This document shows, piece after piece, positions 136-17,166 of a stretch of DNA of 32,000 nt. Source of the DNA: Candidatus Heimdallarchaeota archaeon (GTDB taxonomy: Archaea; Asgardarchaeota; Heimdallarchaeia; Heimdallarchaeales; Heimdallarchaeaceae); assembly GCA_030668875.1 (NCBI GenBank), contig DAOVER010000026.1, positions 9,222 through 41,221 of the forward strand, written 5' to 3'. The translations under genes were made by a program, and so were the position numbers. The notes under the pieces were generated by a model, which was not told the DNA's origin, did no database searches, and saw only the letters and a list, made by a program, of their open reading frames with translations. The stretch's first letter is position 1. Each line of letters opens with the position of its first letter.

Positions 136-3100
136 TTGTCTGATGATAAAAGAGCAAAGAAAATGTCAGCAGCTGCATTCTTTAATGATAATAAAGCAAT
201 AGCTGGCTTTGGAAATTCAATGCGGGCAGTATTTACGAGTATCAGAGAACTTGTAGAAAATGGTTTGGATGCTGCAGAAATCAGGGGAGTCAACCCTGTT
301 ATTTCAATTTATTTACGCAAACTTTCTAGTAGAGAAATTAATGATTTGCTAGATGTAACCCAATATAAAAAGTTGGAAAAACATCTTGATTTTCTGCAAT
401 TAACCTGTAGAGATAATGGGGTTGGAGTTCCAAGCAATCAAATAGCGGATTTGTTTGGACGAGTATTAACAGGAACTAAATATGGTGTAATTCAGACTCG
501 TGGTCGATTTGGCCTCGGAGCAAAAATGTGTTTACTTCACTCTATGTCTTCAGTTGATTTACCAGCACGTATCAAGAGTCGTTACTTCATGGATGATATG
601 ACTCATGAACTTCATCTAATGATAGATCTTGAAAGAAATCAACCTATCGTCATGGAACAAAGAGAATATTTATCTGGAGACCCAAATGCGTTAGAAGAAC
701 CAGGTGTTGAGATTAGCATAACCTTTACTGGCGCTTGGAGATTAGCAAAGAATAGTGTTAAGGAGTACTTCAGACAATTAGCCATTATTACTCCTTATGC
801 AAGTTTTGACATAAAAGTTCCTGGAGATAAGGAAGGAGAATTTGAGGAATTACATTATGTGAATGTAGTAGATGATATGCCTCCTCCCCCCCAGCATATT
901 AAAATTCATCCTTGGGGATGTGATATCACTCAATTCAAAGCAGAATTGTCTTCCACTAAAACTAAAAAAATGAAGGCATTTCTTGCTGAACATTTTATGG
1001 GAGTAACGAATGAAATTGCTGAAGATTTCTTCCAGTTACTAGAAATAGACCCAAACAAATCACCTTCGAATATAACTTCGAAGGAAATACGAAGAATAGT
1101 ACATGAAGGTTTTATTAAAGCTTATCAAGAAGCTAAGGATGTTAAGAGGAAACGAGACAGAATATTCCAATTTGATCCACCACGAGGAGATGCCCTTTCT
1201 CCATTAGGTGCAGGGAGACTAAGGAAAGGTCTAGAGAAAGAATTGCAACCAAAATTTGTTGAAGCTGTTACAAGACCTCCTAAAGCTTACTCTGGTCATC
1301 CTTTTGCAATTGAAGCAACTATGGGTTATGGTGGGAGTGTAAATGAAGCTGCTCAAGCTAAAGGAGCTACCGTTAATGATAATAAGATAATTTACAGGTA
1401 TGCTAACAGAATACCACTGATTTTTGGAGCAGGAAATGATGTAATTACTCAAGTTGTTTCCTCTATCCGATGGAACGACTATGGTCTAACTAGACAGTCT
1501 GATCCTCTTGCAATTGCAGTTTCATTAGTTAGTACAAAAATACCTTTCCCTGAAACAAGTAAAGAGTATATTTCTAATGTTCCTGAAATTGAAGAAGAAA
1601 TAAGATTAGCTCTGATGCAACTAGGAAGGAGACTCAAAACCTTTTTGAGCAGAGCAAAACGAAGAAAAAGAGAACATGCAAGGTTATCCAGATTTGTTAA
1701 ATCAGCACCAGTTATAATTGAAAACCTTACCCAAATTCTTGAAGATGAGAACCTTAAATTCACCGATTTCCGACTAGAAACAGATCGAATTTCTGCATCT
1801 CTAGCTCATGGTTCTCCAAAGAAAGTTCGCTTGTATATGCCAATTGGAACGCGATTATTCGGAGCAAATGTTTGGTGTCCAAATAATATTCAAACAGCAT
1901 TAAAAAATAATAATATTGAGTCAGTTTCAGAATTTCTACTTAAAGATTCAAAAGAATTAGCTGCGTTCCTTCAAATGACAAAAGCTCAGATTTACGATAT
2001 AAAGTTAAGAACTATCTCTGAATTAGACAGAGACAACTTGAGTCCAAGTTTTGATACAAAGACCTTAGTGTCTCGTCTTGTTGAACGAAGGTTCTCCTCT
2101 GAAGGTGAAAGACGGTACATTTCCTTGAAAGATGCATTATACAGACGATGGATACAAAATGTTTACCACTATTTAGCAACAGATTTTGATAAACTTCGTG
2201 CTGTTTCAGGAATGCTAGAGAAGTTCTTCGAAACTAAGAAAGATGAATTACTTAATGATTACTTAGCTAAAGGAGCTAAGACAGGTAAAAACACTATATC
2301 AACTATAGACAAAGCTATTGCTACTTTCAATACTGTATCAGACTTAAAGAAAGAACAACTCTATCCTCCCTTTAAGTATTTAAAATCTGAGACTGACAAT
2401 GTTCTTGGAGAAGATTTGTCAATAGAAGAATTTCTTTACCAGACTGTACAACCCACATCTATTAACTATCATCCAGAAATAACTCGAACGCTTATTGAGT
2501 ATTTGAAAATTGTATTTACACAAATCACTAATAAATTCCCTGCATTTGCTGCAAGCAATATAACAAGAATGAAACCTGATTGGACAGATGGTTATACAAA
2601 AAATGCCTTCCATAGAAGAAAGATAAAAACAGTTAATGATTTTCTGAACCACTCTACAGATGATCTTATTGATATAAAAGAACTGGAAAGAATATTGTAT
2701 GAACAATACATAGAACTAATTGCTTCAAATTCAAAATCTGTTCCTTTGAAAGATTTCTCTTTTGTTGAAATTCAACAGTTAAAAGAGGATGAAACTCTTG
2801 TTATGAAAGATTTAGCTAAACACGGAATAAAGACTCTTGCTCAGTTCTTAAGCTGTACCTCTGAAAAAATATTACTAAAGAAGTTTAATACTTTAGGTAC
2901 TCTTTTACTGAAGGAATCAAAGTTCAAATTATCTGCAAATTTACATGATACTAACAGGATTGTTGATCAATCTCACATCAAAATTATTCCTGAAAATGTT
3001 GAAACAGAATTTGTAAGAAATCAAATATTTACAACTTCTTCTTTTTTGGCGAAATCTTCTGTAATATTAAAGAAAATGGGAATGAAGAAGAAAGATATTG

Positions 3101-6100
3101 AGAGAGCAAAGAAGGAACTTGGTACTCCTTTACAGAATTGGGTCGATCATGATGAAATTCTCAAGAAATGTGGTATAGTAATCTTAGAAGAATTATTCTT
3201 TAATGATTCATCCGAATATAATCTTACACCTGAAGAAAAGAAAAAGTATGATGAAAACATCATTTTCCTCCGTTCTCCACTGATTTTTGCTCTACCCGAA
3301 TTAAGAAGTTCCTCCCATCTTCTTACTGAAATTGGTATTAACAATATTGGACGTTTCCTAATATGGTCTAATTCTGAACTCTCAGATATCCTTTATCTAT
3401 CTGTCAATGAGATAAAAGCTCTGAAGAAGAAAATTGTTTATCAAAAACAAATTCAATCTAGGGATGAACTAGGGAAAGGCTTAACACTTCTTTCAAGGCA
3501 CTATCCTAATTTGGTGAAATATTTTGATAAAGAAGCACCATCGATTCAGGATTTATATTATGCTTATCAGTCAGAAAATTTCTCGTTTAATACAGGTTTT
3601 TGGAAAAAACTATACAAACTGAGTGAACTATCTCAACAAGAAGCTATTGATTTAGTTCATCTTTATCCTAAGAACTTCAAAGATATTGATACATTAAAAG
3701 AAGCACTCCTACGTTTGAAATCAAGGAATGTTGAAACTATACGTCAATTCATGGAATTGCAACCAGAGATAATTGAATCAAAATTGAGTGTCTCAAAGGA
3801 AAGGAAAGTTGCTAGAGCTCTCTATGATACGATCCGATCAAGAAGATTTGAAGGAGAACAAGAATTACACAAACAAATACTTCTTCTTAGTGAGTATGAT
3901 GAATTTCAAAGAAATTTTGGTTCTCCTATTTCTAGGATTCCTGAACTTGCTCTGGAAGAATTAGAGAAATTTCGAAGTCACGATATATTAGCTGTTCATC
4001 AGATATTCGATCATACAGTAGACGAAATAGCTACTGTGCTTGGTCGTGAAAAAGGATCAGTACAACAATTCATGAGCAGTTTTACCCTCTTACAGAAAGG
4101 AACACCATTCTTTGAAAAAGTAGATAGAAACAAATACAAATCACTAGTTTCATTTGAATTTGAGGATCTTGAACGTTTCTCTTCAATCGAGATTCAATCC
4201 CTTATTCAAGCTGGTTACGCTTCAGTTGACCAGATTTTTTATCTAACCCATCCACTTACTTTTTCCTCTTCCATTCTGAACTGGAATGTTGTAGACAAAT
4301 TTAGAAAATTATTACGATCACCTCTTACATTGGTTACATGGGAGAAAACAGTTAAGACAAAAACTTTTGATGAGACTGAGAATAAAGAAGTTGAAGTTGA
4401 GGACGTTCAAATTTCTACATTAACTACTTTACAATTAAATATTTTACAGAATCAAGGTATTTCAAGAATCATCGACCTTCTTGTAAGCAAACCAGAAACA
4501 CTTGCAGAAGCTCTTAGCATCAGTATGGAAGAAGCCAAGATACTCCAGAAAGATATCAGAATTAGTGACACTGGAACTGATTTAGCAGAATTGGACATCT
4601 TCAAATCAGAAATTGTTGATAAATTAGAGGAAAACAATGTTCTTACTCTTGAGGATTTATACTTCTCAACTTCGAAGAGCAAATGGAGAGTTAAAGAAGT
4701 TCCATGGGATATCATAGAATCATTCAAAAGTATTCTCAACCTTCCTCTTGCACATCTGTCAGATATGTTGGATGAAGATATTCTAACTGCTTTAGAGGAT
4801 GCTAATGTTAAAACTCTGTTAGGATTTATGCTTACAACTCCTGAAAGTTTAATGAATAAAACAGGTATACCTGATGAAAGATTTGAAACAATAAAACGCG
4901 GTATGGATATTTCTGACATATTCAGTTACTTCTCACTTCCAAGTTATTTCCTCCCAGGTTTAACCTTCCAGCAAACCGAGATTCTAAAAGAAAATGGTCT
5001 TAAATCAGTCGCAGAATTTATAATCAGCTCTCCACAGAAAATTAACAAATTAATCAAAGTGCCTGCTAAGCAATTCCGAGAAATCACTGCAGATTTAACC
5101 ACTCAAAGCCTACAAGCTCTGTATGATGAGAAAGGAATCTTTGCTTTTGAGACAAAGCTCTTCGATAAAATGGAACAACGACTATTGGGAAGGGATTCAA
5201 TATTTGAATTTGATAGGTTTCAAACCATCCAAGAAATGTATTATACACTGAATAGAGATTTCTATCAAAATAATCAAGACCTATGGGAAAAGGTCTCTGC
5301 AATCCAAAAAGTATTATCACTTCCTCTGCACATATTCACCGAAATCTCTGAATATGCTCTTGAAATTATGAGCCAAAATGGTATTAATTATGTTTATCAG
5401 CTACTCTTTATTCATGATTCAGATATAACTGATCCATTACTATTCAGAACTGTATCAACTTATTCTTCCAAAATAATCGAAATGAGAGCTTTTCATTACT
5501 TTTCCAAGCTTCCTGCTTTTGTTTATAATTCAAACTATTTCAAGAGAATATTGAAGGATACTGTTAACAAATCTCTCTCAGACGTTATTACTGATGAAAA
5601 GGTAATCAAAGATTTAGCTGCAAAAGATAAACAATATTTATACGAAAACTATAACTTAACTATCATTCGTTCAATTCTAGAACTACCACTTAGAATTACT
5701 CCTTACTTTACAAGAATAAAGAAAGTTAGAAGGGATGAATATAAAAATACGAAAATTGGTGATGTTTTCGATATTGATTTAGAAGAACATTCTGCTCTCT
5801 CCTCCTTTTACTCTAGATTATATGAAGAAAACTCTTTCAATAAATTAATCTCGCAATTAACTATCCCAATATCTTCAATGGGATTACCCCGTGAACTTGC
5901 CTTAAAACTAAGCAAATCATCCATAGGTACATTAATAGATTTTTATTCCACTCCTGAGAAACAAGTTTCTGAAATCACTGGTTTTTCACAGAAGAACATT
6001 CGAGAAATAAAAGATGGATTAACATATTCAAACATTGTTTCTTTCCGAGTATCACAAGCTCATAAAATAAAACCTTCTTCCTTTGTATCAGAAAAGCAGA

Positions 6101-9100
6101 TTTTCGACCTTATGGGGAAATCGATATCGGATATAGAATCTCTCTTTTACTCCGCAGAACATTTAGGAATCTCAAAATTACTCCCTCTTGAAAATTATAA
6201 GAAAATCAAGGAAATTCTATCTGGGTCTATAAGATTTGTAGGATTTCTCTCATTTGATGAAATAAGAAGGTTAGAGTATCATAATATTAATTCGATAATT
6301 GATTTTGCTCTACTCTCTAAAAAAGATCTCTTTACCATTACACAAAACCCCATTTACAAGGAGTTTCATGTTCTAGATTTGATTTCCTTTGATGAGTTAT
6401 CAGAGAAAAGGATTCAAGCTGCTATACCTCTCTCATTGTGCCCCTCGATAGAAGAAGATTACTTAGAGAAAATAAAAGAAATTGGAATAAACTCCATTCA
6501 AGATTTTATCTCAAGAATGACAGAAATTAGAGAATCTCATCCTCATCTAGTAAAATTAGATATCTTCCGAGAAGTACAAATGTATCTCTCTTCTGTAGCT
6601 TATATTGGACTTAATAATGAAAGTGTCCAGAAACTCATTTACTCAGGTGTTGGCGATATCTTATCTTTCATAACTGAAGACCCTTCAACTATATCTCTGA
6701 TTCTTGGAATAAGTGAAAAACAAGTTGATAAATATGTCAAACTTGCAGTTCCAAGTAATTTGGTTGAGAAAGTAGACAACAAAGGTGTTCTTCTTACAGA
6801 ATTTTCTGGATTATCTAGAGGAAGGAGAAATTCCTTACTAAAATCTGGAAAAGAAACAGTTCAAGATCTATTTAGTTCTCGTTATCAAGCTTATTCTCAA
6901 TCTAACATCTCTGATGCGTTGATGAGCGAATTTATTGAAAGCTGTAATATGTCGTTATACAGAATTGAAGAAATTGAACCAGGAATTAAGGCTAAGCTTT
7001 CAAAGAGTGGAATAACAAGAATTATTGATTTATTCTGCAGTACTGATGCAGGACTAAAGAAAGCTCTTGATGGTAAACTCCCCAAAGAGTTTAAGCAAAT
7101 TAGAAAAGGTCATTTCACCTTAACAAAAGGAATTCCGCTAAGTTTGAATGAACCCCTGCAAGATATTATTAGAGAACTTAATATCGAACCTTCCAACAAA
7201 AAGATTGAGGACATGTTTGGTTTTGTACCTGAATTTTTGCTTCAATTTACAGAATCTGAAAGAATTGAGAAGGATAAGAATTTAGCATTCCTAGAACAGA
7301 TAGTAAGTTTCTTGAGTCTTAATATTCTATCATTACCGTCATTTGATACCACCACTAAACTGATTCTTTGGAATCGTGGTATCCGCCATATAATAGAACT
7401 ATTATCCACGAATATGAACAAAATTGATGGTATCCCATATCAAGTAATCTCAGAGGTTCGATCTTACCAGAAAAATTTTAGTTTAAGTAGAAGCATGTCA
7501 GAGACATTTTCTCCATATATTGATGATGTACTCAATTTACCTGTTAAAAAGCAAATTAGATTCCAGAATTATGGTCTCACTAGTGCTTTATTACTAGTTG
7601 ATTTCATACCTCATCCCATATTCAGTTTCACTGCAAATGAGCAATCTATTCTCCGGATTATTTCAAATAACATGTTCAAACCAATAACCTGGTTATCTTC
7701 AGATGTATCATTTAAGATTGAAGACATAAACTTACTAATTCAAAATAGAGCTATAAACATCCTTTCAGCTCTGCTTCTATTATCTGATCAAGATGATACT
7801 AAAGCACTAGATACTTTATCTAATAAATACTATAAACCGATTTCTGCTTACCTCAATTCATCTGTCTTACAACTTAGTGCCCCTGAATGGGCTCTACAAT
7901 TATCTAATACAAAGATAATAACAGATGCTAATAGCCTAAAATTACTAAAGAAAGAGAACATTTCTTATCTTGATGAATTCCTGACATTAGAAAGCAAGTT
8001 TTTGAATAACCCTAATCTTATAACCGATGTTTTACCAAAACTACTTTCACTAAAAAGCCTCCCCATATCCTCCATCAGTGACCTATCACCCAGTAATATT
8101 CAAAAATTAAAACGTTCAAGAATAAACAATGTTTATGAGTTTCTTGTAGTTCCTGCTCCATTGCTTTCAAATCTTCTATCAATTTCTGTTGAGAATGTTA
8201 ACGCAACTAAATCTTCAATTGATCTTTCTTCATTAGAAAAAACAGCAAAACTTACTGGTTTGGACCTAGAACTCTTCCCAGAACTTTCCCAAGATTCTAG
8301 AATAATTCTTCAAAGAAGAGGTTGTGTGTCTCTGAATCAAGCATCGAAGATGGATCTAGATCTCATTCCACTTCTTTCAGAAGATAAGTTACTTTTACAA
8401 AACCTTATCGCTATGTTATTTACTCCCACCACATTAATTGGAAAAATACTTAAATTAACAAAGAATGAAATTGATGAATTACTAATTCGTGATGTATGTA
8501 CATATGTAGACCTCTTAGAGCTTCCTCAAAAAACTTGGCCTGCAAAAATAAGGAAAAGTTTGTCAGATAAGGATTCTGATCCAACATATCTAATTAAGAA
8601 CTTACAAAACCTTGAGAAATTCGGAGTGCCTATAGAAAAGCTAGATTTAGCAAAAAGTGTTACTAAAGCGCTAGTAGATGCAGGAATTGTAACAATTGAT
8701 CATCTATACTATCTACCCATAACCTATGTAAGTGCAAGGAGTAAAGTTAAACAACCCATTCTTGAAGAAATTAAGAAGAAATTATCCTACAATATAAATT
8801 TCCTTCAAGATATCTCACATACAACTTTAGCTGGTTGTTATTCGAAAGATTCTTTTACGATAATTAGTTGCTTGATTTACTGGAATAATTTATCTAAGGA
8901 AATAAGAACAGATTTGGAAGGTTCTCTAGACAGTATCAAACTAATTGAAGAAACAAGATTTATTGAACCACTGACTCCAACGGAAACAAAGCTAGAATCT
9001 ATTGGTATTCACTCGTTAAGATCATTCATTTTATCCCCACAGATTAAAAAAGAAACAGGTTTAGCAACCAAACTATTACCATCTCTATTAGCTAATATTC

Positions 9101-12100
9101 GTTTCCTAAGTCTAGATCCAAAGCAGATTTCTCGCTTGAAGAAAACTGGTTTTGTTACAGTGGCAGATTTGCTTCTAAATACTTCAAAAACAATATCTGT
9201 TAAATCCAAATTAGGTAAGAATGCAATTGATGAAATTCTCAATAACATAAAAATTGATAACTTAACCAGTTTGATTAAATCGATGGAACAAGAGCATTTA
9301 CATGATGCATTTTATCTGAGTACTAATGACAAAACATTCTTGAAATCAATAGGTGTTTATAGTTTAGCAGACTTAAACGAGTATACTGTTCTTGACTGGT
9401 TTGTTTCTAAACAAAAAATCCAAAAAATCAAAAAGAAAATTAACGCTTTGTTAGATACTAATATCCTTTACTATCCAGGAATTACATCTAAACAATATGC
9501 AGAAGTTGTTGAACAATACTTCATGAGGAATATATTTACGATCAAAGATCTAATGATATCAACAACAGTCGAGAAGACAAGTGATTTGATTGAATTTCTA
9601 ACCATTTTCTCTACTAACAAACCTAAAATCCAATCCCAATATGTGACCTCTCTTTCATTCTTAAAAGGCATTGAAACCAAGGATTTGTTCGAGAAAAATG
9701 TTAAATTAGAAAAATCTGCAACAATTAATGATCTTATAGTAGCATTATACAGAAATTCTGAGGAATTGACCAAAAAGGGCGATGATATTATCAAACAGAT
9801 TAACTACCCAATTTCTTTTTCATCAAAACTTAACCTCAATGAAGCAAATGATTTACGAAGCAAAAACATCCTTTCATATGGAGATGTACTTACCAAACCA
9901 GTAGGTTATTGGGGGACTTTTGCTTCAGCGAAACTAAAGAAGAAGATTCTTGAAATTCTTAGTACAATTACATCACAAAACATTGAAAATGAAGGTAAGA
10001 AGAGAGTTCAATTAAGTAGCATGAAAATATTCGATACAAACCTTAAGAAACAGCTTACATCAAATTATAAGACAATTGATGAAGTTATTCATGCAATAAA
10101 AACAGAAGATACTAAAATCTTAAAACCATTGGAAAGGAAAATCACTAAAGTTTTGTCTACTCCTATCTCTCTTCTCAAATTACCAAAAATCAAGATTAAA
10201 TCATGGAAAAGACTTATATCGACTGTATCTACTTTAGAAGAATTCTACTTATTAACAGATCAAGAATTAGTCAAAATTCTATCCTCAAGCAAGGAAGAAA
10301 TTGTTAAATTAAAGATCAATCTCGGGTCTGAAAATATCATCTTACCTCCAAGAATAAAGGAAAATAAGATCTTTACTAGTTCAGATGTTACAGAACTAAG
10401 TGCTAATGGGATTTCAAATTATGTACAGCTTTTTGAAGTGACAATAGAAATTTCTAAACTCAGCACTTCGTTAAAGGATAAAATTGCCTTCTACAAGGAG
10501 TTTGATGTTAAGCAATTGGACGAGAACATAGAAGAAACCATACTCCTGAAAGATTTTGTATTTCTTGACTTTTATGCAGATTCTCTGGCTCTAAGTAGAA
10601 TACAAAAGGAATCTGTAAAGAATCTTTCCTCCTTGCTCTTGTCTCGTGGAACTCATCTATCAAAGATATTTGATATAGATCTATTTGATATAGATCCCAA
10701 TAAAGACAAAAGTAATCTGCTCAATACAACTATAGAGTATTTCCTCTTGATCGAGAAATATCGACCTAAGGTTTACACAAAAATTGTTGAATCTTTACAA
10801 GAAAAATACTCTTCACAATTAAACACTTTGCTTTCTTATCTTAATAGGTCACCAATTCTCCTTTCAGGACCAAATCTGTCAAATATTAACAAAATAGTTA
10901 AACTTCCTTATGAAAATATAAAGGACTTGCTCTTACTATCCAAGGAGAAACTTATTCGAGAAATAAATGATGTTGCTGTTCAAAGAAATGTTAGAGGATT
11001 GACATTATCTGTTTTGAAAGATCTTGATTCCAAGCTGACTTATATTCCAAAAGAGTTTTTGACAGCTTACGAGATAAACCAATTAAAGAAAGAGAATATT
11101 TATTCCTTTGAAGAAGCTTTGGTTTTCAATAGAAAGTCAACTAGTAGAAAATCTAAGCCTTGGTTACTATCTGAAAAAGTAAGAAAAATATCCACTATTA
11201 ACACGCTCTCACTTTCTTCTTATCTCCCCTCATCTAAAATACAAGAAAGACTACTGAAACTTAAAATAACCAATGTGTATGAACTGGTTTATTATTGCCA
11301 GAATACAGAAAAAGAAGAAGACTTGAGTCTTTGCCAATCTGTTATTCAATCTGTAAGTTCTATTAATATTGAGGAAATTGAAACAAAAGAGAGAAGTAGA
11401 TTTACTAAATTCTTTAATGACCCCGATATTCTTTCTTATTTACGAAGTCAAGATATCAGAACTTTTGGACCTTTAGTACATTATTTAGAACAGTTAGAGG
11501 ATGAAGCTTTTACCCCTGAAATTGAGAAAATCTTATCCGTTATGCGTTTTCCAGTTTCTGTATTGTCAGATAATAAGAAACTTGTGCTAAAACTAGAAGG
11601 TGAAGGTTATAACCAAGTAGTTAATCTTCTTATTCCTGCAAAAATAATCAATAGTTTGAAAAGCAATATTACCGAGAATCAGAAGAAAGTTCTCACCTCT
11701 CTGATTAACATGCTTACTTATCAAGAAATATGTCGAATAATCACAAAAGATCATTATCCGATATCAAAACTTAGTTTAATCGATGATATTTTGTTAAAAG
11801 AGTTAGTAAAGGCTGGATATGCATCAGTAGCTCATCTCAAATCAGCTGAAACAATTATTGCTGATACTAGCAAACTAAATCTACAACAAATTTCTCGTAT
11901 TGTAAGACTCTTTGATTCGTCTATTTATTACATGTCTGAAATGCTTAAAGACTATCCACAAAGTGCTTTTACTTTGTACAATAAAGGAGTTAACACACTA
12001 TGGGATATTTTCCTAGTTGGAAGTAAGGAAATTTCCAAGATTACAGGTATTTCTGTTCGACAGATAACTTCCTATTTATCAACTCTCAATCCTCAAGCAA

Positions 12101-12765
12101 TAAAACTTGCTCAAAAAGACCAAATTGCACTAAAAGAAAAGCTTACCTACTTAACTGTTGAAGATGTTGAACGATTAGAACAAAGTAACATCACTTCCAT
12201 ACAACAGTTATTGTTCCTTACAAAGGAAAATAAGACCACCTCTTCGCTCCAGCGAAGTAATGTGAAGAAATTCATCCAGCTACTTGGAATGCCTTTAAAT
12301 GCAATAGATATACAAGAGACAATTATTAAACAGCTAGAACAACAAGGTATCACTTTAGTAAAAGATTTCATTATTTATCCAGCAGAACCTATGGCTGGCA
12401 AAGTAGATTTAAGCTATGTTATGATTAAAAGGATTAAGGGAAGACTCCCCTTAGCTACAAAAAAGAAGGCTAAGAAATCTTCTCAAAAAACTTCTTCAGC
12501 AAAACCTACAACCACAAAGAAAACTACAATTGCCAAGAAATCAGTAACAACTCAACGAAAAGCTAAGACAACAACCGCCTCTTCTAAACCAAAACCAAAA
12601 GCTAAGGTTAAGCCAAAAGCTAAAGCTAAACCAAAACCAAAACCAAAATCAACTAAACAGATGACTTTGATGGATATGAAATCTACTTCAAAAAAGAAAT
12701 CATCTCCAACTTCAAAAACGAGAAAAAGCTCAAAAACCACTACGAAAAAAGGTGAAAAATCATGA
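136..12765 (+). CDS. top6B: Giant DNA topoisomerase VI subunit B fused to a ~50-module HhH-like array and a basic C-terminal tail (4209 aa)
   Basis: The first ~540 aa carry the Top6B GHKL motifs ELVENGLDA, DNGVG and GTKYGVIQTRGRFGLG, an H2TH segment (FLAEHFMGVTNEIAEDFF) and the transducer motifs RYANRIPL and IPFPETSKEYI (switch Lys). The ORF overlaps top6A by ATGA. The rest is repeated LxxPIxx(L)...L...G(I/V)x(T/S)(I/V)xx(L/F) modules. Confidence 0.95.
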   Translation: MSDDKRAKKMSAAAFFNDNKAIAGFGNSMRAVFTSIRELVENGLDAAEIRGVNPVISIYLRKLSSREINDLLDVTQYKKLEKHLDFLQLTCRDNGVGVPSNQIADLFGRVLTGTKYGVIQTRGRFGLGAKMCLLHSMSSVDLPARIKSRYFMDDMTHELHLMIDLERNQPIVMEQREYLSGDPNALEEPGVEISITFTGAWRLAKNSVKEYFRQLAIITPYASFDIKVPGDKEGEFEELHYVNVVDDMPPPPQHIKIHPWGCDITQFKAELSSTKTKKMKAFLAEHFMGVTNEIAEDFFQLLEIDPNKSPSNITSKEIRRIVHEGFIKAYQEAKDVKRKRDRIFQFDPPRGDALSPLGAGRLRKGLEKELQPKFVEAVTRPPKAYSGHPFAIEATMGYGGSVNEAAQAKGATVNDNKIIYRYANRIPLIFGAGNDVITQVVSSIRWNDYGLTRQSDPLAIAVSLVSTKIPFPETSKEYISNVPEIEEEIRLALMQLGRRLKTFLSRAKRRKREHARLSRFVKSAPVIIENLTQILEDENLKFTDFRLETDRISASLAHGSPKKVRLYMPIGTRLFGANVWCPNNIQTALKNNNIESVSEFLLKDSKELAAFLQMTKAQIYDIKLRTISELDRDNLSPSFDTKTLVSRLVERRFSSEGERRYISLKDALYRRWIQNVYHYLATDFDKLRAVSGMLEKFFETKKDELLNDYLAKGAKTGKNTISTIDKAIATFNTVSDLKKEQLYPPFKYLKSETDNVLGEDLSIEEFLYQTVQPTSINYHPEITRTLIEYLKIVFTQITNKFPAFAASNITRMKPDWTDGYTKNAFHRRKIKTVNDFLNHSTDDLIDIKELERILYEQYIELIASNSKSVPLKDFSFVEIQQLKEDETLVMKDLAKHGIKTLAQFLSCTSEKILLKKFNTLGTLLLKESKFKLSANLHDTNRIVDQSHIKIIPENVETEFVRNQIFTTSSFLAKSSVILKKMGMKKKDIERAKKELGTPLQNWVDHDEILKKCGIVILEELFFNDSSEYNLTPEEKKKYDENIIFLRSPLIFALPELRSSSHLLTEIGINNIGRFLIWSNSELSDILYLSVNEIKALKKKIVYQKQIQSRDELGKGLTLLSRHYPNLVKYFDKEAPSIQDLYYAYQSENFSFNTGFWKKLYKLSELSQQEAIDLVHLYPKNFKDIDTLKEALLRLKSRNVETIRQFMELQPEIIESKLSVSKERKVARALYDTIRSRRFEGEQELHKQILLLSEYDEFQRNFGSPISRIPELALEELEKFRSHDILAVHQIFDHTVDEIATVLGREKGSVQQFMSSFTLLQKGTPFFEKVDRNKYKSLVSFEFEDLERFSSIEIQSLIQAGYASVDQIFYLTHPLTFSSSILNWNVVDKFRKLLRSPLTLVTWEKTVKTKTFDETENKEVEVEDVQISTLTTLQLNILQNQGISRIIDLLVSKPETLAEALSISMEEAKILQKDIRISDTGTDLAELDIFKSEIVDKLEENNVLTLEDLYFSTSKSKWRVKEVPWDIIESFKSILNLPLAHLSDMLDEDILTALEDANVKTLLGFMLTTPESLMNKTGIPDERFETIKRGMDISDIFSYFSLPSYFLPGLTFQQTEILKENGLKSVAEFIISSPQKINKLIKVPAKQFREITADLTTQSLQALYDEKGIFAFETKLFDKMEQRLLGRDSIFEFDRFQTIQEMYYTLNRDFYQNNQDLWEKVSAIQKVLSLPLHIFTEISEYALEIMSQNGINYVYQLLFIHDSDITDPLLFRTVSTYSSKIIEMRAFHYFSKLPAFVYNSNYFKRILKDTVNKSLSDVITDEKVIKDLAAKDKQYLYENYNLTIIRSILELPLRITPYFTRIKKVRRDEYKNTKIGDVFDIDLEEHSALSSFYSRLYEENSFNKLISQLTIPISSMGLPRELALKLSKSSIGTLIDFYSTPEKQVSEITGFSQKNIREIKDGLTYSNIVSFRVSQAHKIKPSSFVSEKQIFDLMGKSISDIESLFYSAEHLGISKLLPLENYKKIKEILSGSIRFVGFLSFDEIRRLEYHNINSIIDFALLSKKDLFTITQNPIYKEFHVLDLISFDELSEKRIQAAIPLSLCPSIEEDYLEKIKEIGINSIQDFISRMTEIRESHPHLVKLDIFREVQMYLSSVAYIGLNNESVQKLIYSGVGDILSFITEDPSTISLILGISEKQVDKYVKLAVPSNLVEKVDNKGVLLTEFSGLSRGRRNSLLKSGKETVQDLFSSRYQAYSQSNISDALMSEFIESCNMSLYRIEEIEPGIKAKLSKSGITRIIDLFCSTDAGLKKALDGKLPKEFKQIRKGHFTLTKGIPLSLNEPLQDIIRELNIEPSNKKIEDMFGFVPEFLLQFTESERIEKDKNLAFLEQIVSFLSLNILSLPSFDTTTKLILWNRGIRHIIELLSTNMNKIDGIPYQVISEVRSYQKNFSLSRSMSETFSPYIDDVLNLPVKKQIRFQNYGLTSALLLVDFIPHPIFSFTANEQSILRIISNNMFKPITWLSSDVSFKIEDINLLIQNRAINILSALLLLSDQDDTKALDTLSNKYYKPISAYLNSSVLQLSAPEWALQLSNTKIITDANSLKLLKKENISYLDEFLTLESKFLNNPNLITDVLPKLLSLKSLPISSISDLSPSNIQKLKRSRINNVYEFLVVPAPLLSNLLSISVENVNATKSSIDLSSLEKTAKLTGLDLELFPELSQDSRIILQRRGCVSLNQASKMDLDLIPLLSEDKLLLQNLIAMLFTPTTLIGKILKLTKNEIDELLIRDVCTYVDLLELPQKTWPAKIRKSLSDKDSDPTYLIKNLQNLEKFGVPIEKLDLAKSVTKALVDAGIVTIDHLYYLPITYVSARSKVKQPILEEIKKKLSYNINFLQDISHTTLAGCYSKDSFTIISCLIYWNNLSKEIRTDLEGSLDSIKLIEETRFIEPLTPTETKLESIGIHSLRSFILSPQIKKETGLATKLLPSLLANIRFLSLDPKQISRLKKTGFVTVADLLLNTSKTISVKSKLGKNAIDEILNNIKIDNLTSLIKSMEQEHLHDAFYLSTNDKTFLKSIGVYSLADLNEYTVLDWFVSKQKIQKIKKKINALLDTNILYYPGITSKQYAEVVEQYFMRNIFTIKDLMISTTVEKTSDLIEFLTIFSTNKPKIQSQYVTSLSFLKGIETKDLFEKNVKLEKSATINDLIVALYRNSEELTKKGDDIIKQINYPISFSSKLNLNEANDLRSKNILSYGDVLTKPVGYWGTFASAKLKKKILEILSTITSQNIENEGKKRVQLSSMKIFDTNLKKQLTSNYKTIDEVIHAIKTEDTKILKPLERKITKVLSTPISLLKLPKIKIKSWKRLISTVSTLEEFYLLTDQELVKILSSSKEEIVKLKINLGSENIILPPRIKENKIFTSSDVTELSANGISNYVQLFEVTIEISKLSTSLKDKIAFYKEFDVKQLDENIEETILLKDFVFLDFYADSLALSRIQKESVKNLSSLLLSRGTHLSKIFDIDLFDIDPNKDKSNLLNTTIEYFLLIEKYRPKVYTKIVESLQEKYSSQLNTLLSYLNRSPILLSGPNLSNINKIVKLPYENIKDLLLLSKEKLIREINDVAVQRNVRGLTLSVLKDLDSKLTYIPKEFLTAYEINQLKKENIYSFEEALVFNRKSTSRKSKPWLLSEKVRKISTINTLSLSSYLPSSKIQERLLKLKITNVYELVYYCQNTEKEEDLSLCQSVIQSVSSINIEEIETKERSRFTKFFNDPDILSYLRSQDIRTFGPLVHYLEQLEDEAFTPEIEKILSVMRFPVSVLSDNKKLVLKLEGEGYNQVVNLLIPAKIINSLKSNITENQKKVLTSLINMLTYQEICRIITKDHYPISKLSLIDDILLKELVKAGYASVAHLKSAETIIADTSKLNLQQISRIVRLFDSSIYYMSEMLKDYPQSAFTLYNKGVNTLWDIFLVGSKEISKITGISVRQITSYLSTLNPQAIKLAQKDQIALKEKLTYLTVEDVERLEQSNITSIQQLLFLTKENKTTSSLQRSNVKKFIQLLGMPLNAIDIQETIIKQLEQQGITLVKDFIIYPAEPMAGKVDLSYVMIKRIKGRLPLATKKKAKKSSQKTSSAKPTTTKKTTIAKKSVTTQRKAKTTTASSKPKPKAKVKPKAKAKPKPKPKSTKQMTLMDMKSTSKKKSSPTSKTRKSSKTTTKKGEKS
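1860..12450 (+). repeat. Protein-level array of ~50 diverged HhH / alphaCTD-like modules within Top6B
   Basis: Examples: LTIPISSMGLPRELALKLSKSSIGTLIDFYSTPEKQVSEITGFSQKNIREIKDGL (5857-6021), KSLPISSISDLSPSNIQKLKRSRINNVYEFLVVPAPLLSNLLSISVENV (from 8053), FGVPIEKLDLAKSVTKALVDAGIVTIDHLYY and LGMPLNAIDIQETIIKQLEQQGITLVKDFII. The count is by eye and approximate. Confidence 0.85.
12460..12762 (+). repeat. Low-complexity Lys/Ser/Thr/Ala/Pro-rich tail with KP/KA dipeptide repeats
   Basis: KKKAKKSSQKTSSAKPTTTKK...KPKPKAKVKPKAKAKPKPKPK...KKGEKS; the DNA has AAACCA repeats at about 12586-12648. Confidence 0.9.
12751..12755 (+). promoter_or_regulatory. Shine-Dalgarno motif for top6A, inside the end of top6B
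   Basis: GGTGA lies 6 nt upstream of the ATG at 12762. Confidence 0.7.
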
Positions 12766-14171
12766 GTTCAGATCATAAATTTGTTATTAGTAATTCAACA
12801 GTTTTACCTGCTATTGAGAGAACTGCTTCTTTTGATAAGGATATTCTAGTTAGAGAAATATACAGTTGGGCTAGAGAAACATTTGACCTCAAACGAGGAT
12901 CATATGTATTATTCTTAAGAAGCTTCAAGAAATGGCACAAACTTGAACCTACAAGAAAATTATCTAGATACAATCTCCAAAAGGAAACAATGAGCATTAG
13001 CATAAAAAACTCAGTTTCAATAGACAAACTACAATCCGTTAGAGAAGAACTAGAACATTTAACAAAATACTTAATGCCTTTTGGTGTTACTCACGTAGCA
13101 ACCAAGAATTCACAAGAAACAAACAATCTTCTTGTTGAATATGCTTTAGATTTCCTAAATCAAGCAATGGTGTCACCTAATGATGCAGCTTTTCAGATTC
13201 CATCTAGAGCGGGAACAAATGTAGGTTTTGATGAGGATCAAGAATTAGTTCTTATCGGTCGTCAAATGATTGATAGACAATTTAGAAATTTAGCTTCAGT
13301 AAGTTCTGTTGAGCAAATGACCATTGTTATGAAACTCATTCACGATATTCTTTCCAGAGATATTCACAGTACTAAAAGAGATATATTCTATATGAATGTA
13401 AATGCATTTGATAAGCAGTCTGTTTCTGATTCTCTTATAGAAGATGTGGGAGCAATGTTACAAGTTACTCGTTCATCTTTGAATATTAGTGCTTCTTCCA
13501 AAGGGATTGTTGTTGGACGTATTAGTTTCAAAGAAAAAGGGGATCTCATAGATTGTCGTGCAATAGGAGCTGGCAAAGCTATATCACCAAATATTGATGA
13601 TATAGAGAGTATGGAAACTGATGCAGAAATGTGTTTGGTTATTGAGAAGGATGCTGTCTTCAATAGGCTTGCAGAGGATCAGTTCTATGATTATGTCCCA
13701 AGCATCCTCATAACAGCAAAAGGTCAACCGGATATAGCTACAAGACAATTTTTGAAGAAAATAAACGATGATCTCAGTCTACCTATATTTGCTATTATGG
13801 ATGCCGACCCTTATGGTTTTGAAATTATGCGTGTATATAGCGTAGGGAGCAAAGCATTGAGCTTTGAATCAAGTCATCTAGCCGTACCTAGTATTAAATG
13901 GTTGGGTTTACTACCAAGTGATCTTTCTCCTGAAAGTGGATTTGATATTCCAAGAAGTGCTTTAATTAAAATGACTTCTAAAGACATTCATCGATCTAAA
14001 CTGATGCTAGATGAGGAATTTGTCAAAAGAAAACCAAAATGGAAAGAGCAACTAGAAATCCAAATAGCAACTGGGTTTAAAGCTGAAATACAAGCACTTA
14101 ATGCAAGAGACCCACAATATATTACTAATTTCTATCTTCCACAAAAAATTGAGGCGGGAGATTTTATCTAA
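12762..14171 (+). CDS. top6A: DNA topoisomerase VI subunit A (Spo11 family) with an N-terminal ubiquitin-like domain
   Basis: The catalytic Tyr motif is TKRDIFY (Y210, nt 13389-13391). Toprim motifs are VIEKDAVF and DADPYG, with ITAKGQPD and KAEIQAL also present. Residues ~5-82 resemble a beta-grasp Ubl domain. Confidence 0.97.
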   Translation: MSSDHKFVISNSTVLPAIERTASFDKDILVREIYSWARETFDLKRGSYVLFLRSFKKWHKLEPTRKLSRYNLQKETMSISIKNSVSIDKLQSVREELEHLTKYLMPFGVTHVATKNSQETNNLLVEYALDFLNQAMVSPNDAAFQIPSRAGTNVGFDEDQELVLIGRQMIDRQFRNLASVSSVEQMTIVMKLIHDILSRDIHSTKRDIFYMNVNAFDKQSVSDSLIEDVGAMLQVTRSSLNISASSKGIVVGRISFKEKGDLIDCRAIGAGKAISPNIDDIESMETDAEMCLVIEKDAVFNRLAEDQFYDYVPSILITAKGQPDIATRQFLKKINDDLSLPIFAIMDADPYGFEIMRVYSVGSKALSFESSHLAVPSIKWLGLLPSDLSPESGFDIPRSALIKMTSKDIHRSKLMLDEEFVKRKPKWKEQLEIQIATGFKAEIQALNARDPQYITNFYLPQKIEAGDFI

Positions 14172-14232
14172 AATGATGTACCTATCAGGATAAAGATTAG
14201 AAAAAAAGTTGGCGATTAAGAATCGTTGATCT

Positions 14233-14613
14233 TTACTTTAGCAGGACAATCTCAATTGTGGATACTGTTTTTGGACCATAACCTTCTACATCACTTGGCA
14301 ATTCTTCAGATCCTATAACCACTTTATCAATTACTACGCTGTCTATCGGGTATTTTCTACGAGCTATTTCAGCAACATCAACTGCTTTCGAGATTTGTCT
14401 TCCACGGGCTTGAATTCCACACTTATTATGTTTATTGAGTATTGTAATTGCAACTAAAACATAGCTAATCGTTGGTTTCTTTCCGATGTAAATAATATGA
14501 CTCCGCTCTCTGTACTCAGTTGTGGGTTTAGTGGCTTCTTTAGGCGTTTCTTCTTTCTTAGCTTCTTCCTTAGCTTCTTTCTTAGCTTCTTCCTTAGCTT
14601 CTTCTTTACTCAT
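14233..14613 (-). CDS. albA: Alba DNA/RNA-binding chromatin protein with an N-terminal EEAK repeat
   Basis: IYIGKKP...YV...ARGRQISKAVDVAEI...IGSEE...VSTIEIVL are Alba motifs. ATG at 14613 is preceded by AGGTGA and is preferred over the GTG at 14622. Confidence 0.95.
   Translation of the reverse strand: MSKEEAKEEAKKEAKEEAKKEETPKEATKPTTEYRERSHIIYIGKKPTISYVLVAITILNKHNKCGIQARGRQISKAVDVAEIARRKYPIDSVVIDKVVIGSEELPSDVEGYGPKTVSTIEIVLLK
14557..14604 (-). repeat. 4 x 12-bp tandem repeat encoding (E/K)EAK
   Basis: On the + strand: CTTAGCTTCTTC, CTTAGCTTCTTT, CTTAGCTTCTTC, CTTAGCTTCTTC. Confidence 0.9.
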
Positions 14614-14778
14614 GAATTTCACCTATATTCCATTGTCTGTCAAATGCTTCAGTATAAGCGTTATTAAAATGTCATTCCCACGTTTAAAAATTTTTCCTCC
14701 TCCTTAAGTGACACACAAAAGAACAAATAAATACATTAAGGTAAAACAAGAATAGGGCTTAATAAGGCCAAAGGATGT

Positions 14779-16575
14779 TTGATAGATTTGAAGTTTCCAA
14801 GGTTCATAATTGATTCTTTAATCATTGTGCTAAGTATATCTTTGCTTACTTCTATTTATACTATCTTTGGGTGGTTTTTTCCTCTCTTTGAAAATTACAT
14901 TATTATTCTTGATATCTTTGTTGGGATAGGTTTTATTATCTATGGATGGTTATTGAGACGATGGTTTCTTAAGAAGAATCTTGATGAGAAAGATGGTTCA
15001 TTGATACATTTTTTTAAGATAATTCTTCCAGTATTTGGTTTAATATTGGTCATTGTATTAGTAATTGGTTTATCTAATCTATCAAAGATAATTCTCCTAG
15101 CAATGATTTCTAACTATTTATTAAATATCTTTCAGATCTTTATTGTATCGATTCTAGTTGGGATTTTCACATTTACATTTATCGAGAATAATCTTGGAAT
15201 TCTTCTTTTCAAAGAACCTGTAGTTGAACAAGAAGACAAGCTCGGTTCTGATTTAATGAGAAAGCAGCTAAAGAATCTCGTTGACAAACAATGGAAATAT
15301 GGTATGATTATTCTATGGATATCTATTATGATAGCAAATCTACTAGTTTTTCTCGCATATCCTTCCATACCTGCAAATGAAGTGAGTTTTACCTATCAAA
15401 ATCTTGATTTTAGTTTTCCTAATTTTGCGTTCACATTCAACACAGAAACAGGTTTTAATCAACAATTCTTCTCTAGTGTTTCTATCCCTTCATCTGCACT
15501 TCTAAATTGGAAATTAATTCAATCTCTCATCAGTCTTATTTTTCTGGGTTTGCTTGTTCTACTCATATATCTGCCTTATTCAAAGATTTCAGTGGAAAAA
15601 AATAAGATTAATGTAAGTTCAGCACATACTGAAAATGTTCAAGAAATAGATGAGAAACTGGGTACTGTCCCAATTTCCTTAACCACTTCTGACATTATCG
15701 AACATTTCGATGATATGGACACTGAAATTCTAGCTTTTAAAGTTCTGTCTCCACAACCTACAAAAGAATACTTGCCTTCAAACATAATAAGCCCTAAATC
15801 AAGAGGAAGATTTTCAAAAACACTAAATAGAATGAAGAACAGTGATGTAATTCCAGTTATGAACCTGGCGAGCTTGAATCTATTTCTGGCTCTCTATATT
15901 GTTAGTTTATTTGACAGATTGGGAATAATAACAAGTATTGCAAATGATGTGTTTCAAGATTCATATGCTCTATTAACACATCTTTACTGGGCTGGGTTAG
16001 CAGAAGAAGTATCATATCGTTTTCTTTTGTTTGGTGTTCCTTTGTTTGTCATTTATGGAGTAGTTTTTCTATTCATTTTCATTATAAAGAAGACACTAGT
16101 CAAAGAGAAGAAAGAAGAAGATCTTTCAAGATTTGCAATGTGGGTTAAATCCAAAACACCAATAAACCCCCTACTCTATTTGAGTGGTAGATGGAAAAAA
16201 CTGAGAATTCTTGATGTCATATTTCTATTACTTTCGTCATTCGGTTTTGGTTATGTTCACTATCAATTTGGTTGGGATGCATGGAAAATATTTCAAGCAG
16301 GAATCGCTGGAATTATTTTTGGTTATGCTTTCTTTAAATACGGATTACATGCTGCGATAATTTTGCACACAATAAATAATTTTGTACTAGGAATGCTAGT
16401 ATCTCTAAATCTTGGTTTTATGTTATCTGGTGGCATTCTGTTTATTGTTATTACTGTTGCTGGAATATTGGTATTGCTGAATTTAACAGCAAAGGCACTA
16501 ACAGTATCTTTTAAATTCCTTAATACTATATTCAAAAGAAGTCAACCAAGTACTGATACCTCTAAACAAAAGTGA
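14779..16575 (+). CDS. Polytopic membrane protein with a C-terminal CPBP (type II CAAX protease/Abi) intramembrane metalloprotease domain
   Basis: AEEVSYR (EExxxR), FGYVH (FxxxH) and HTINN (HxxxN) motifs; many hydrophobic segments. Confidence 0.88.
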   Translation: MIDLKFPRFIIDSLIIVLSISLLTSIYTIFGWFFPLFENYIIILDIFVGIGFIIYGWLLRRWFLKKNLDEKDGSLIHFFKIILPVFGLILVIVLVIGLSNLSKIILLAMISNYLLNIFQIFIVSILVGIFTFTFIENNLGILLFKEPVVEQEDKLGSDLMRKQLKNLVDKQWKYGMIILWISIMIANLLVFLAYPSIPANEVSFTYQNLDFSFPNFAFTFNTETGFNQQFFSSVSIPSSALLNWKLIQSLISLIFLGLLVLLIYLPYSKISVEKNKINVSSAHTENVQEIDEKLGTVPISLTTSDIIEHFDDMDTEILAFKVLSPQPTKEYLPSNIISPKSRGRFSKTLNRMKNSDVIPVMNLASLNLFLALYIVSLFDRLGIITSIANDVFQDSYALLTHLYWAGLAEEVSYRFLLFGVPLFVIYGVVFLFIFIIKKTLVKEKKEEDLSRFAMWVKSKTPINPLLYLSGRWKKLRILDVIFLLLSSFGFGYVHYQFGWDAWKIFQAGIAGIIFGYAFFKYGLHAAIILHTINNFVLGMLVSLNLGFMLSGGILFIVITVAGILVLLNLTAKALTVSFKFLNTIFKRSQPSTDTSKQK

Positions 16576-17165
16576 AGAATATGAGCTACGGGCAAAAATT
16601 ATTCCTTAAGGTAATCTTAGCAGGAGAAGCTGAAGTAGGAAAAACAAGTTTAAGACGTTCATATCTTGGAGAAGGATTTGTCAAAAGTCATCTTCAAACG
16701 ATAGGTGCAGATTTTGCTTCATTACCAAAAACAGTCAAAGATTATAATGTTCTTTATCAGATTTGGGATGTAGCTGGACAAGACATATTCGAAAATGTTC
16801 GGATGATGTACTATAAGGGTACCCTTGGTGCGATGATGGTATTTGACGCTACAAAAATTAATACTTTTAGAGCATTGGATCGTTGGATAAAAGAGCTTGA
16901 GAAAGGTACAGAAAGAGGAATTGTTCCATTCTTCATCCTCGGCAATAAGATGGATTTAGTTACTCCTGCAAAAAAAACCAAACTAAAAGCAGAAGTCAAT
17001 AAATACATAGCTGGGTTGAACAAAAAATATTCTGACAAGGGATTTACTGTAGAGTATATTGAAACTTCTGCTAAAACCGGTGATAATGTCCATTCCGCTT
17101 TTGAACAATTAGGAGTCAAGATTATAGATTATATTCAACATCGAAAGAAAATGAGGGGTAAATAG
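16572..17165 (+). CDS. Rab-like small GTPase (Ras superfamily)
   Basis: G1 GEAEVGKTS, G2 TIGADF, G3 WDVAGQ, YYKG, G4 NKMD, G5 ETSAK. The start is GTG 16572 or ATG 16581. Confidence 0.95.
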   Translation: MKNMSYGQKLFLKVILAGEAEVGKTSLRRSYLGEGFVKSHLQTIGADFASLPKTVKDYNVLYQIWDVAGQDIFENVRMMYYKGTLGAMMVFDATKINTFRALDRWIKELEKGTERGIVPFFILGNKMDLVTPAKKTKLKAEVNKYIAGLNKKYSDKGFTVEYIETSAKTGDNVHSAFEQLGVKIIDYIQHRKKMRGK

Positions 17166-17166
17166 A

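Follow-up and report, generated by a model that had tools for sequence, protein, structure and literature searches.

A giant DNA topoisomerase VI with a helix-hairpin-helix-type array and a ubiquitin-fold domain in Heimdallarchaeia

What is a housekeeping topoisomerase doing with a subunit about eight times the normal size? The question is raised by the genes for DNA topoisomerase VI (Topo VI), top6B and top6A, in a Candidatus Heimdallarchaeota archaeon (genome of 3.23 Mb, 92% complete). The window analyzed here is a 32,000-nucleotide stretch of that genome (GenBank contig DAOVER010000026.1; C32:9222-41221 in our numbering), and where no contig is named, positions are counted from its first letter. 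Top6B has 4,209 amino acids (aa) here, compared to 530-621 aa in canonical archaeal enzymes, and Top6A has ~105 N-terminal residues that canonical Top6A lacks, consisting of a ubiquitin-like (Ubl) domain and a helix. The initial annotation, made from the letters alone, described a topoisomerase-based chromatin machine into which DNA binding, clamp docking and ubiquitin-type regulation had been fused, with the chromatin protein Alba as a neighboring part. Part of that picture stands: the add-ons are real, conserved and co-distributed, and modeling favors clamp docking. Ubiquitin-type regulation is unsupported, and Alba probably lies outside the system. We consider it probable that this is the sole housekeeping Topo VI of the organism, with three lineage-specific modules on intact cores, namely arms that engage DNA, a tail that tethers the enzyme to the replication clamp PCNA, and a Ubl domain at the base of the array. 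The features on which this reading is built are the following.

136-12765, + strand: top6B, 4,209 aa, with TTG as start codon; some database orthologues start at an ATG ten codons downstream
136-1770, + strand: catalytic core of Top6B (GHKL ATPase, H2TH, transducer), aa 1-~545, from NF003218, PF09239 and 2zbk_B
1813-12390, + strand: array of ~58 diverged five-helix modules of the double helix-hairpin-helix, (HhH)2, type in Top6B, aa ~560-4085, from a module hidden Markov model (HMM), an AlphaFold2 (AF2) model and fold matches of single modules
12391-12762, + strand: Lys/Thr/Ser/Ala/Pro-rich, probably disordered tail of Top6B, aa 4086-4209 (124 aa), from composition and fast evolution outside the motif
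12655-12678, + strand: non-canonical motif KQMTLMDM, like a PCNA-interacting peptide (PIP), in the tail, aa 4174-4181, from conservation of Q, T, L and D and a modeled PCNA interface
12762-14171, + strand: top6A, 469 aa; its ATG shares 4 nt with the top6B stop
12762-13016, + strand: Ubl beta-grasp domain of Top6A, aa 1-85, followed by a linker helix, aa 87-104, from AF2, Foldseek and Pfam matches of homologues

Intact cores and a helical array

Over aa 5-543, Top6B scores above the cut-offs of the equivalog NF003218 (448.2 bits, cut-off 274) and of TIGR01052 (388.4 bits, cut-off 380.7). Its transducer matches PF09239 at aa 349-515 (2.3e-54), the core aligns to residues 6-493 of S. shibatae 2zbk_B (1.5e-87), and the ATP-binding boxes ELVENGLDA, DNGVGVP and GRFGLGAK can be read in the translation. 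Top6A matches TP6A_N (PF04406, 2e-21, 76 bits) and Toprim (PF21180, 8.2e-58, 195.6 bits). From aa 120 on it aligns to residues 17-388 of S. shibatae 2zbk_A, with RDIFY, VIEKDAVF and DADPYG in register (the winged-helix-domain tyrosine and the Toprim acidic residues). Because its NCBIfam equivalog scores lie under the cut-offs (256.8 compared to 465), we regard Top6A as a divergent family member. The two genes form an operon with a 4-nt overlap, and the order B then A is the same in all related loci examined. Subunit alignment, the GHKL, transducer, winged-helix tyrosine and Toprim motifs, and the overlapping B-A operon are all shared with canonical archaeal Topo VI (S. shibatae 2zbk, M. mazei 2q2e). 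Both subunits are single copy, so that these intact and complete cores are the sole Topo VI genes of the window genome. The enzyme is presumably the housekeeping type IIB topoisomerase, an A2B2 assembly of ~9,360 residues.

Beyond the core, Top6B continues with an array of ~3,540 aa that corresponds to ~58 modules at ~60 aa per module. The HhH array of the initial annotation is thus present in the Pfam matches, the module HMM and the AF2 model, with ~58 modules of ~60 aa rather than 50. Pfam scans of aa ~560-4085 gave a summed RAD51D_N match of 6e-28 and weak matches to HHH_5 and to the C-terminal domain of the RNA polymerase (RNAP) alpha subunit (RNA_pol_A_CTD). Internal repeats escaped a self-BLAST of the extension, because the modules have diverged too far, and HMM iteration and profile-profile comparison were needed. 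Iterated HMMs settle on a 36-40-aa core of the RadA N-terminal domain/alpha-CTD kind with 18-27 clear copies in the array, and most of the ~58 modules are too diverged for detection by sequence HMM. Hydrophobicity autocorrelation gave weak peaks at 120-124 aa in the first two thirds and at ~98 and ~218 aa in the last third, which are consistent with, but not strong evidence for, a super-repeat of ~122 aa.

A fragment of 541 residues (aa 1430-1970), folded by AF2 with a 19-sequence orthologue alignment, is predicted to be all helical with a period of ~60 residues (mean predicted local distance difference test score [pLDDT] 89.5, predicted template-modeling score [pTM] 0.81). Since a pTM of 0.81 was obtained over 541 residues, the modules are predicted to form a single rigid, uninterrupted body instead of a chain of loosely strung beads. 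Single modules superpose on the N-terminal domains of a RAD51 paralogue and RAD51C (Z 8.1 and 7.5, root-mean-square deviation [rmsd] 2.3 Å, 60-64 residues). Further matches are the RNAP alpha-CTD, NusA AR domains, the HhH domains of XPF and Y-family polymerases and, at lower Z (5-5.7, VIA-align), SAM domains. The best of these, to RadA/Rad51, RAD51-paralogue N-terminal domains and the alpha-CTD, have Z 6.3-8.1 and rmsd 2.3-2.8 Å over 53-66 residues. Such Z values would be nothing unusual by themselves in small helical domains, yet the sequence-profile matches point the same way. The RadA/RAD51-type domain occurs once per protein, whereas here the modules are packed in a continuous body. Foldseek found no global match for the 541-aa model among solved structures (best E 0.43), and VIA-align matched single modules only.

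The distal half of the array (aa 2324-4085) is homologous to the proximal half in long co-linear blocks (hhalign 97.5%, E 5e-12, 903 columns), and the entire 2,311-aa Top6B of the Hodarchaeales type is co-linear with aa 9-2323 of the window protein. The array therefore seems to have grown by duplication of multi-module blocks. In the window genome the module HMM matched nothing outside top6B, the genome's own RadA not being detected at E<1, and a recent origin of the array from RadA is thus unsupported. A word-index search for arrays that stand alone or are fused to other proteins gave nothing but pieces of this one gene, cut off at contig ends.

A chance open reading frame can be excluded, because the frame extends over 12.6 kb of DNA with 32% G+C, is co-linear in 13 full-length orthologues (4,161-4,341 aa, 34-91% identity), and is covered without indels or joints by contigs of two further sediment samples. 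The distant orthologues are 78-97% identical in the core and 25-63% in the array, with at most 14 gapped positions per ~800-residue block. Such conservation of length is unusual for a repeat protein. Among 25 strain variants listed in top6B, 20 are synonymous, and within the array 17 of 20 fall at codon position 3 (p ~3e-6), a pattern indicating that the array is under purifying selection.

Extensions of topoisomerases by other domains have been described. The Top6B extension of M. mazei is a small Ig-like C-terminal domain (PMC11302465), compared to the helical HhH-type train found here. Topo V of Methanopyrus kandleri, a type IC enzyme, combines a small topoisomerase module with a tandem array of 12 (HhH)2 domains (PMC9489208, PMC4838376). 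The resemblance, repeated five-helix (HhH)2 domains C-terminal to a topoisomerase, is architectural only: the catalytic families differ (IC and IIB), as do the module counts (12 and ~58), and no sequence or global-fold relationship was found between the array and Topo V, to whose chains the Foldseek probability is only 0.03. Topo V is to our knowledge the only precedent for a topoisomerase with a tandem HhH train, and we know of no PIP-like tail or Ubl partner in it.

The same features allow a different function for the array. It could be mainly a protein scaffold or ruler, that is, a stiff arm of constant length that keeps the tail and PCNA, or other partners, at a given distance from the catalytic core, or that oligomerizes, with the HhH-like fold reused structurally as in SAM-like five-helix modules. 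The strict length, with almost no indels at 25-35% identity, and the high pTM, which implies fixed inter-module packing, would suit such a scaffold, as would a charge near neutral, degenerate hairpins with an HhH sequence signature in only 18-27 of ~58 modules, and the SAM domains among the structural matches (Z 5-5.7). Set against this are best matches that are DNA-associated (RAD51-paralogue/RadA N-terminal domain, RNAP alpha-CTD, Y-family polymerase, XPF HhH), attachment of the array at the topoisomerase DNA gate, the precedent of Topo V, whose (HhH)2 train is used on DNA (PMC9489208), and the short array of a related family, f7, which retains canonical HhH motifs (HHH_5 8.6e-28). On balance we find a pure scaffold doubtful; given the near-neutral charge and degenerate hairpins, it is a serious rival to DNA-engaging arms.

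The ubiquitin-fold domain and its distribution

Top6A aa 1-135 was folded with 28 homologues. The resulting model of the Ubl domain has a pLDDT of ~90 over aa 1-85 and the order strand-strand-helix-strand-strand-strand, and its best Ubl matches in Foldseek are all ubiquitin or its variants (probability 1.00, target-normalized template-modeling score 0.72-0.84, rmsd 2-3 Å, ~83 columns). In Pfam, the window sequence itself has a weak match to the beta-grasp family FERM_f0 only (E 0.005), and among the 28 homologous N-termini, 12 match Pfam ubiquitin (best 3.8e-7) and 4 match Rad60-SLD. AF2 and Foldseek thereby confirm the Ubl domain that had been noted on Top6A, and place it at aa 1-85. Its last strand (SISIKNSVS) leads into the helix at aa 87-104 and then into the canonical Top6A N-terminus. 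Gly-Gly at the Ubl end is absent from the window Top6A and from all 28 homologues, and no processing site was seen. Because it lacks Gly-Gly and is continuous with the helix and the Top6A core, we interpret the Ubl as an integral domain and not as a conjugatable modifier. It shares the beta-grasp fold with ubiquitin and with eukaryotic integral Ubls (UDP/UBX-type), and is set apart by the missing Gly-Gly, by 10-20% identity to ubiquitin and by its fusion to the N-terminus of Top6A.

To follow both add-ons across the phylum, 399 genomes were surveyed with a Ubl-only profile (families are numbered f and genera g). Ubl-Top6A, in frames of ~470 aa, is kept in 67 genomes of seven families: 27 of 29 genomes in f1, 1 of 1 in f2, 3 of 3 in f3, 12 of 12 in f4, 20 of 22 in f5, 1 of 2 in f6 and 3 of 5 in f28. 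No convincing match was found elsewhere in the 399 genomes. The same seven families are those with Top6B frames of at least 2,200 aa (f1, ~4,140-4,305 aa; f2, 4,244; f3, up to 3,573; f4, ~3,470-3,590; f5, ~2,312-2,346; f28, ~2,290), and within f28 the three genomes with a Ubl are the same three that have a giant Top6B. Contigs labeled by their submitters as Thor-, Odin- and Promethearchaeota carry Top6B of 2,311, 2,414 and 2,515 aa beside Ubl-Top6A. In family f7, of the same class, Top6B measures 1,117 aa, with a more canonical HhH array (HHH_5 8.6e-28) making up its extension of ~590 aa, and Top6A has 399 aa and no Ubl. One distribution is nested in the other, and the two are not independent: HhH arrays occur in the absence of a Ubl, and no Ubl was ever seen apart from a long array. 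The co-occurrence check proposed with the initial annotation thus found no independence between the two add-ons. Nevertheless, related genomes are not independent samples, and the pattern, which may go back to one or two gains, speaks for durable co-inheritance more than for functional coupling.

This distribution also bears on what the Ubl is for. One interpretation is that it is a regulatory handle, recognized by ubiquitin-binding receptors (Cdc48 adaptors, proteasome-type factors) or by E1/E2 machinery, which controls the turnover or extraction of covalent Top6A-DNA, and that its co-occurrence with the array reflects common descent only. A handle would fit a fold whose nearest relative is ubiquitin itself, the four E2-type and two ubiquitin-family matches in the genome, a co-occurrence that a single origin could account for, and the HhH array of f7, which comes with no Ubl. 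Yet the domain has no Gly-Gly and no processing site, no receptor was identified, it is kept in 67 genomes of seven families and was never seen on a Top6A with a short partner, and it lies beside the A-B junction where the array starts. We consider a handle quite unlikely. The ubiquitin-type regulation that was first proposed is likewise unsupported, as the domain is built in and lacks Gly-Gly, and nothing in this analysis links it to the E2 and ubiquitin genes of the genome.

Those genes deserve mention in their own right. The window genome has four E2-type (UQ_con) and two ubiquitin-family matches, and an E2-type match is paired with a ubiquitin-family match within a few kb at G000:C91:46473-48298 and at G000:C80:2115-6442 (G000 being the window genome). 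Together they make up a ubiquitin toolkit of a eukaryote-like kind.

Top6B proteins of ~1,100 aa in f16, f19 and f20 were considered as intermediates in the growth of the array and rejected, since their extra length is an N-terminal or internal insertion without HhH matches. In f16 (L013:168-3440, genome G124), a 1,090-aa Top6B has an insertion of ~600 aa between GHKL (aa 1-217) and transducer (aa 817-999), with a weak zinc-ribbon match, and its partner is a 410-aa Top6A with a basic N-terminus. In f19 and f20, which are large Loki-type families (L055:4717-8181, - strand; L056:354-3656, + strand), Top6B has 1,100-1,154 aa. It is ~170-230 residues longer at the N-terminus, holds a long insert ahead of the transducer and closes with 250-290 aa in which there is no HhH match, and it thus represents yet another Top6B architecture.

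The basic tail, the replication clamp and a working model

The tail of Top6B consists of 31% Lys, 16% Thr, 14% Ser, 8% Ala and 7% Pro. Its composition agrees with the H1-like character first ascribed to it; a relation to linker histones does not follow, as the Pfam scan of Top6B found no linker-histone domain and hence no winged-helix globular domain of H1. Outside the motif the tail evolves fast, and the only invariant columns among the 13 orthologues are the Q, T, L and D of [KR]-Q-x-T-L-x-D. Invariant columns in a fast-evolving tail are typical of a short linear motif. The canonical PIP box, Q-x-x-[ILM]-x-x-[FYW]-[FYW], is matched in part: Q and L are present and positions 7-8 are Met-Lys, with M, V, I, L or K at position 7 in the orthologues. 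The PIP-like motif that was noticed initially is therefore present at aa 4174-4181, without the aromatic pair of the canonical box.

The genome itself provides a standard of comparison. A scan of all its open reading frames yielded five proteins with Q-[KT]-[ST]-L-x-[DE]-[FY]-x at their ends. They include family-4 uracil-DNA glycosylase (UDG), which ends in QKSLVDFM, and the Hel308/Hjm helicase, which ends in QKSLDEFFSK. Each is an established client of PCNA in other archaea. The aromatic position is the only one at which the Top6B motif departs from this genome's own PIP flavor, Q-x-[ST]-L-x-[DE]-F-x. The Top6B tail and archaeal PCNA clients (UDG, Hel308/Hjm, Fen1, RFC-L) have in common the sequence Q-x-[ST]-L-x-[DE] within a C-terminal region that is disordered. 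In the clients it stands at the extreme end, whereas in Top6B it lies 28 residues from the C-terminus within the Lys-rich tail. We know of no type IIB topoisomerase with a PIP box.

A complex of the window genome's PCNA (L006:1495-2277) and the 70-residue tail, each given as an alignment, was modeled. The model scored 0.82, compared to 0.02 for the best control, with contact agreement between runs of at least 67% and a partner pLDDT of at least 52 (~53). This mark was reached by 58 of 80 solved complexes and by 2 of 110 mismatched pairs. The modeled contacts join tail residues 32-42 (KSTKQMTLMDM) to PCNA residues 41, 44-48, 204, 206, 231-232 and 248-255, which correspond to the canonical PIP pocket and the C-terminal strand in solved PCNA-peptide complexes. 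Motif conservation, the controlled complex model and the genome's own PIP consensus together support the clamp docking proposed at first, and suggest that the motif is a conserved, non-canonical PCNA-interacting peptide, probably of low affinity. Other size classes close with PIP-like peptides of their own: KTLEEFM within the basic tail of the 2,515-aa form and, at the C-terminus, GRLDAYM in the 2,311-aa forms and KIDALLGL in the 2,414-aa form.

Three other proteins found in the scan end in PIP-box-like sequences, namely a DUF2797 protein (G000:C12:27764-28687, + strand; GQKSLSDYF), a TdeIII-like restriction endonuclease homologue (C37:12823-13674, - strand; NQKSLLDFL) and a small HEAT-repeat protein (C22:56527-57246, + strand; TQTTLKEFIDE). 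They may be unrecognized PCNA clients.

How might the parts work together? In the reading that we favor, two weak PIP-like tails would tether the enzyme to PCNA on newly replicated DNA, and Topo VI held there would resolve precatenanes or crossings. Topo VI is a preferential decatenase (PMC8837201). The HhH arms, which begin at the transducer end beside the DNA gate, would hold or organize long stretches of flanking DNA or chromatin, a role that may be likened to that of the (HhH)2 tail of Methanopyrus Topo V or the C-terminal domains of gyrase and Topo II. Canonical Top6A starts at ~aa 105-120 of the window protein and canonical Top6B ends at ~aa 545-580. In the solved holoenzymes 2q2e and 2zbk, the N-terminal region of Top6A reportedly packs on the transducer end of Top6B. 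Both add-ons would thus sprout from one A-B junction by the DNA gate, where the Ubl would most probably buttress or latch the array at its base. Stabilizing the arm base in this way is its most likely function, and a signal for degradation or conjugation is unlikely.

Several observations weigh against this reading. The net charge of the array, with the tail excluded, is ~+4 over 3,500 aa, unlike that of a simple polycationic DNA binder, and glycine has been lost from many second hairpins of its modules. As the family f7 demonstrates, an HhH array can exist without a Ubl, and the co-occurrence of the two, with about one or two origins, may reflect co-inheritance more than functional coupling. 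In the tail, the aromatic pair of the canonical PIP box is replaced by Met or other non-aromatic residues in the orthologues, and the tails of the Kariarchaeaceae type (f4) are merely basic, with no PIP-like motif. The pass of the PCNA model may reflect likeness and not binding, because PCNA-peptide complexes are abundant among solved structures. Finally, no RNA runs holding the locus were listed, and the full-length product is known from DNA only.

A bolder version would make the giant arms, Ubl latch and PCNA tail a megadalton, replication-coupled chromosome organizer. Two rigid arms of ~58 modules would capture or cage distant DNA and feed it to the strand-passage core behind the fork, taking over roles of the Topo II/gyrase C-terminal domains or of SMC-type complexes. 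The arms would have lengthened in steps, through duplication of blocks, from 1.1 to 2.3, 3.5 and 4.2 thousand aa while the lineage diversified. We regard this version as unlikely.

Neighboring genes and wider meaning

The gene that follows top6A was part of the system as first drawn.

14233-14622, - strand: alba, 129 aa, convergent with top6A; PF01918

The proposed span, 136-14233, ended at what is only the last base of this gene, so that most of alba lay outside it. As described, the gene is a convergent neighbor that encodes Alba (PF01918, 4.5e-12, 46 bits, cut-off 25; NCBIfam AlbA lies under its cut-off, 79.2 compared to 90) with a charged N-terminal extension, rich in Glu, Lys and Ala and of the KEEAK type. 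A functional chromatin module of top6B, top6A and alba, in which the extended Alba paralogue acts with Topo VI, could be argued from the convergent adjacency of top6A and alba in 18 of 18 g1 genomes with both genes on one contig and in both g2 genomes, and from the fact that the adjacent paralogue, and not the second, shorter Alba of the window genome (contig C54), bears the charged extension. However, the convergent orientation allows no common transcript, the genes are 116-119 kb apart in two complete g5 genomes and on different contigs in g4 and f3, no Alba was found with the window Alba query in 12 f4 genomes, the charged extension is confined to genus g1, and the top6 loci of f4, f5 and f28 have other neighbors. 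Such a module is highly improbable. With the synteny of top6B, top6A and alba checked and the adjacency seen only in g1 and g2, Alba is local synteny and probably lies outside any conserved Topo VI system.

Two further observations concern Alba itself. The second Alba match of the window genome (G000:C54:8462-8749, + strand) holds one in-frame TAA, which could be due to a pseudogene, a sequencing error or alignment overrun. In f3, Alba matches stand head to tail in single frames of 211 aa (G040:C44:8514-9107; G041:C60:2028-2621; G042:C316:18333-18965), which suggests a tandem Alba-Alba fusion protein.

A check for a normal short Topo VI or a gyrase in the window genome found no second Topo VI and an intein-bearing gyrase. 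GyrA (G000:C15:56666-60619, - strand; loci L002-L004) lies on a contig other than that of top6, in a 1,726-aa frame split by two inteins of ~435 aa each, and each intein consists of a splicing domain and a LAGLIDADG endonuclease domain. In the lineages with a Top6B of 2.3-2.4 thousand aa, gyrB-gyrA-top6B-top6A form one tight co-directional string (L017:1-11413; L018:69-11416; L007), which places two different type II topoisomerases side by side, and in the Hodarchaeales type gyrB-gyrA is directly upstream of top6B.

The remainder of the window holds a RadA gene (25699-26811, - strand; Rad51 domain 1.6e-92, an HhH N-terminal domain and a Lys-rich leader of ~50 aa), 11.5 kb from top6A. At 16572-19521 (+ strand), the gene for a 197-aa small GTPase of the Ras/Roc family stands immediately before that for a HEAT-repeat protein of 784 aa, which has a weak Cnd1-like (condensin) match, and a 598-aa open reading frame without Pfam match (14779-16575) overlaps the start of the GTPase.

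It was also suggested that the fused modules stand in for the accessory subunits RHL1 and BIN4 of plant Topo VI or for the partners of Spo11. This is unsupported. Pfam scans of both subunits found no likeness to either; a search with RHL1 or BIN4 reference sequences was not made. In the literature searched, we found no description of a giant or HhH-bearing Top6B, of a Ubl on Top6A, or of the tail motif, and databases annotate the giant protein simply as Top6B. A paper on the Asgard replisome covers the phylogeny of Top6A and Top6B only (PMC12680538). New here are the nested co-occurrence across the phylum, the controlled PCNA model together with the genome's PIP consensus, the signal of selection among strains and the reduction of Alba to a local neighbor.

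Both the meiotic Spo11 complex and plant Topo VI descend from Topo VI, and no known archaea are closer to eukaryotes than Heimdallarchaeia. Several families of this class have as their sole Topo VI an assembly of ~1 MDa with a predicted clamp-docking tail and a ubiquitin-fold domain on the DNA-cleaving subunit. Its HhH-type array is the longest of which we are aware. If our reading is correct, the enzyme would be the first demonstrated case of a type IIB topoisomerase tethered to the replication clamp, and the second topoisomerase, after Topo V, that uses a tandem HhH train. It would also provide a handle on how decatenation is coupled to replication in archaea with histone-based chromatin. 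The nested distribution, with the HhH array first and the Ubl only with long arrays, makes it possible to test whether domains were added step by step to an essential enzyme.

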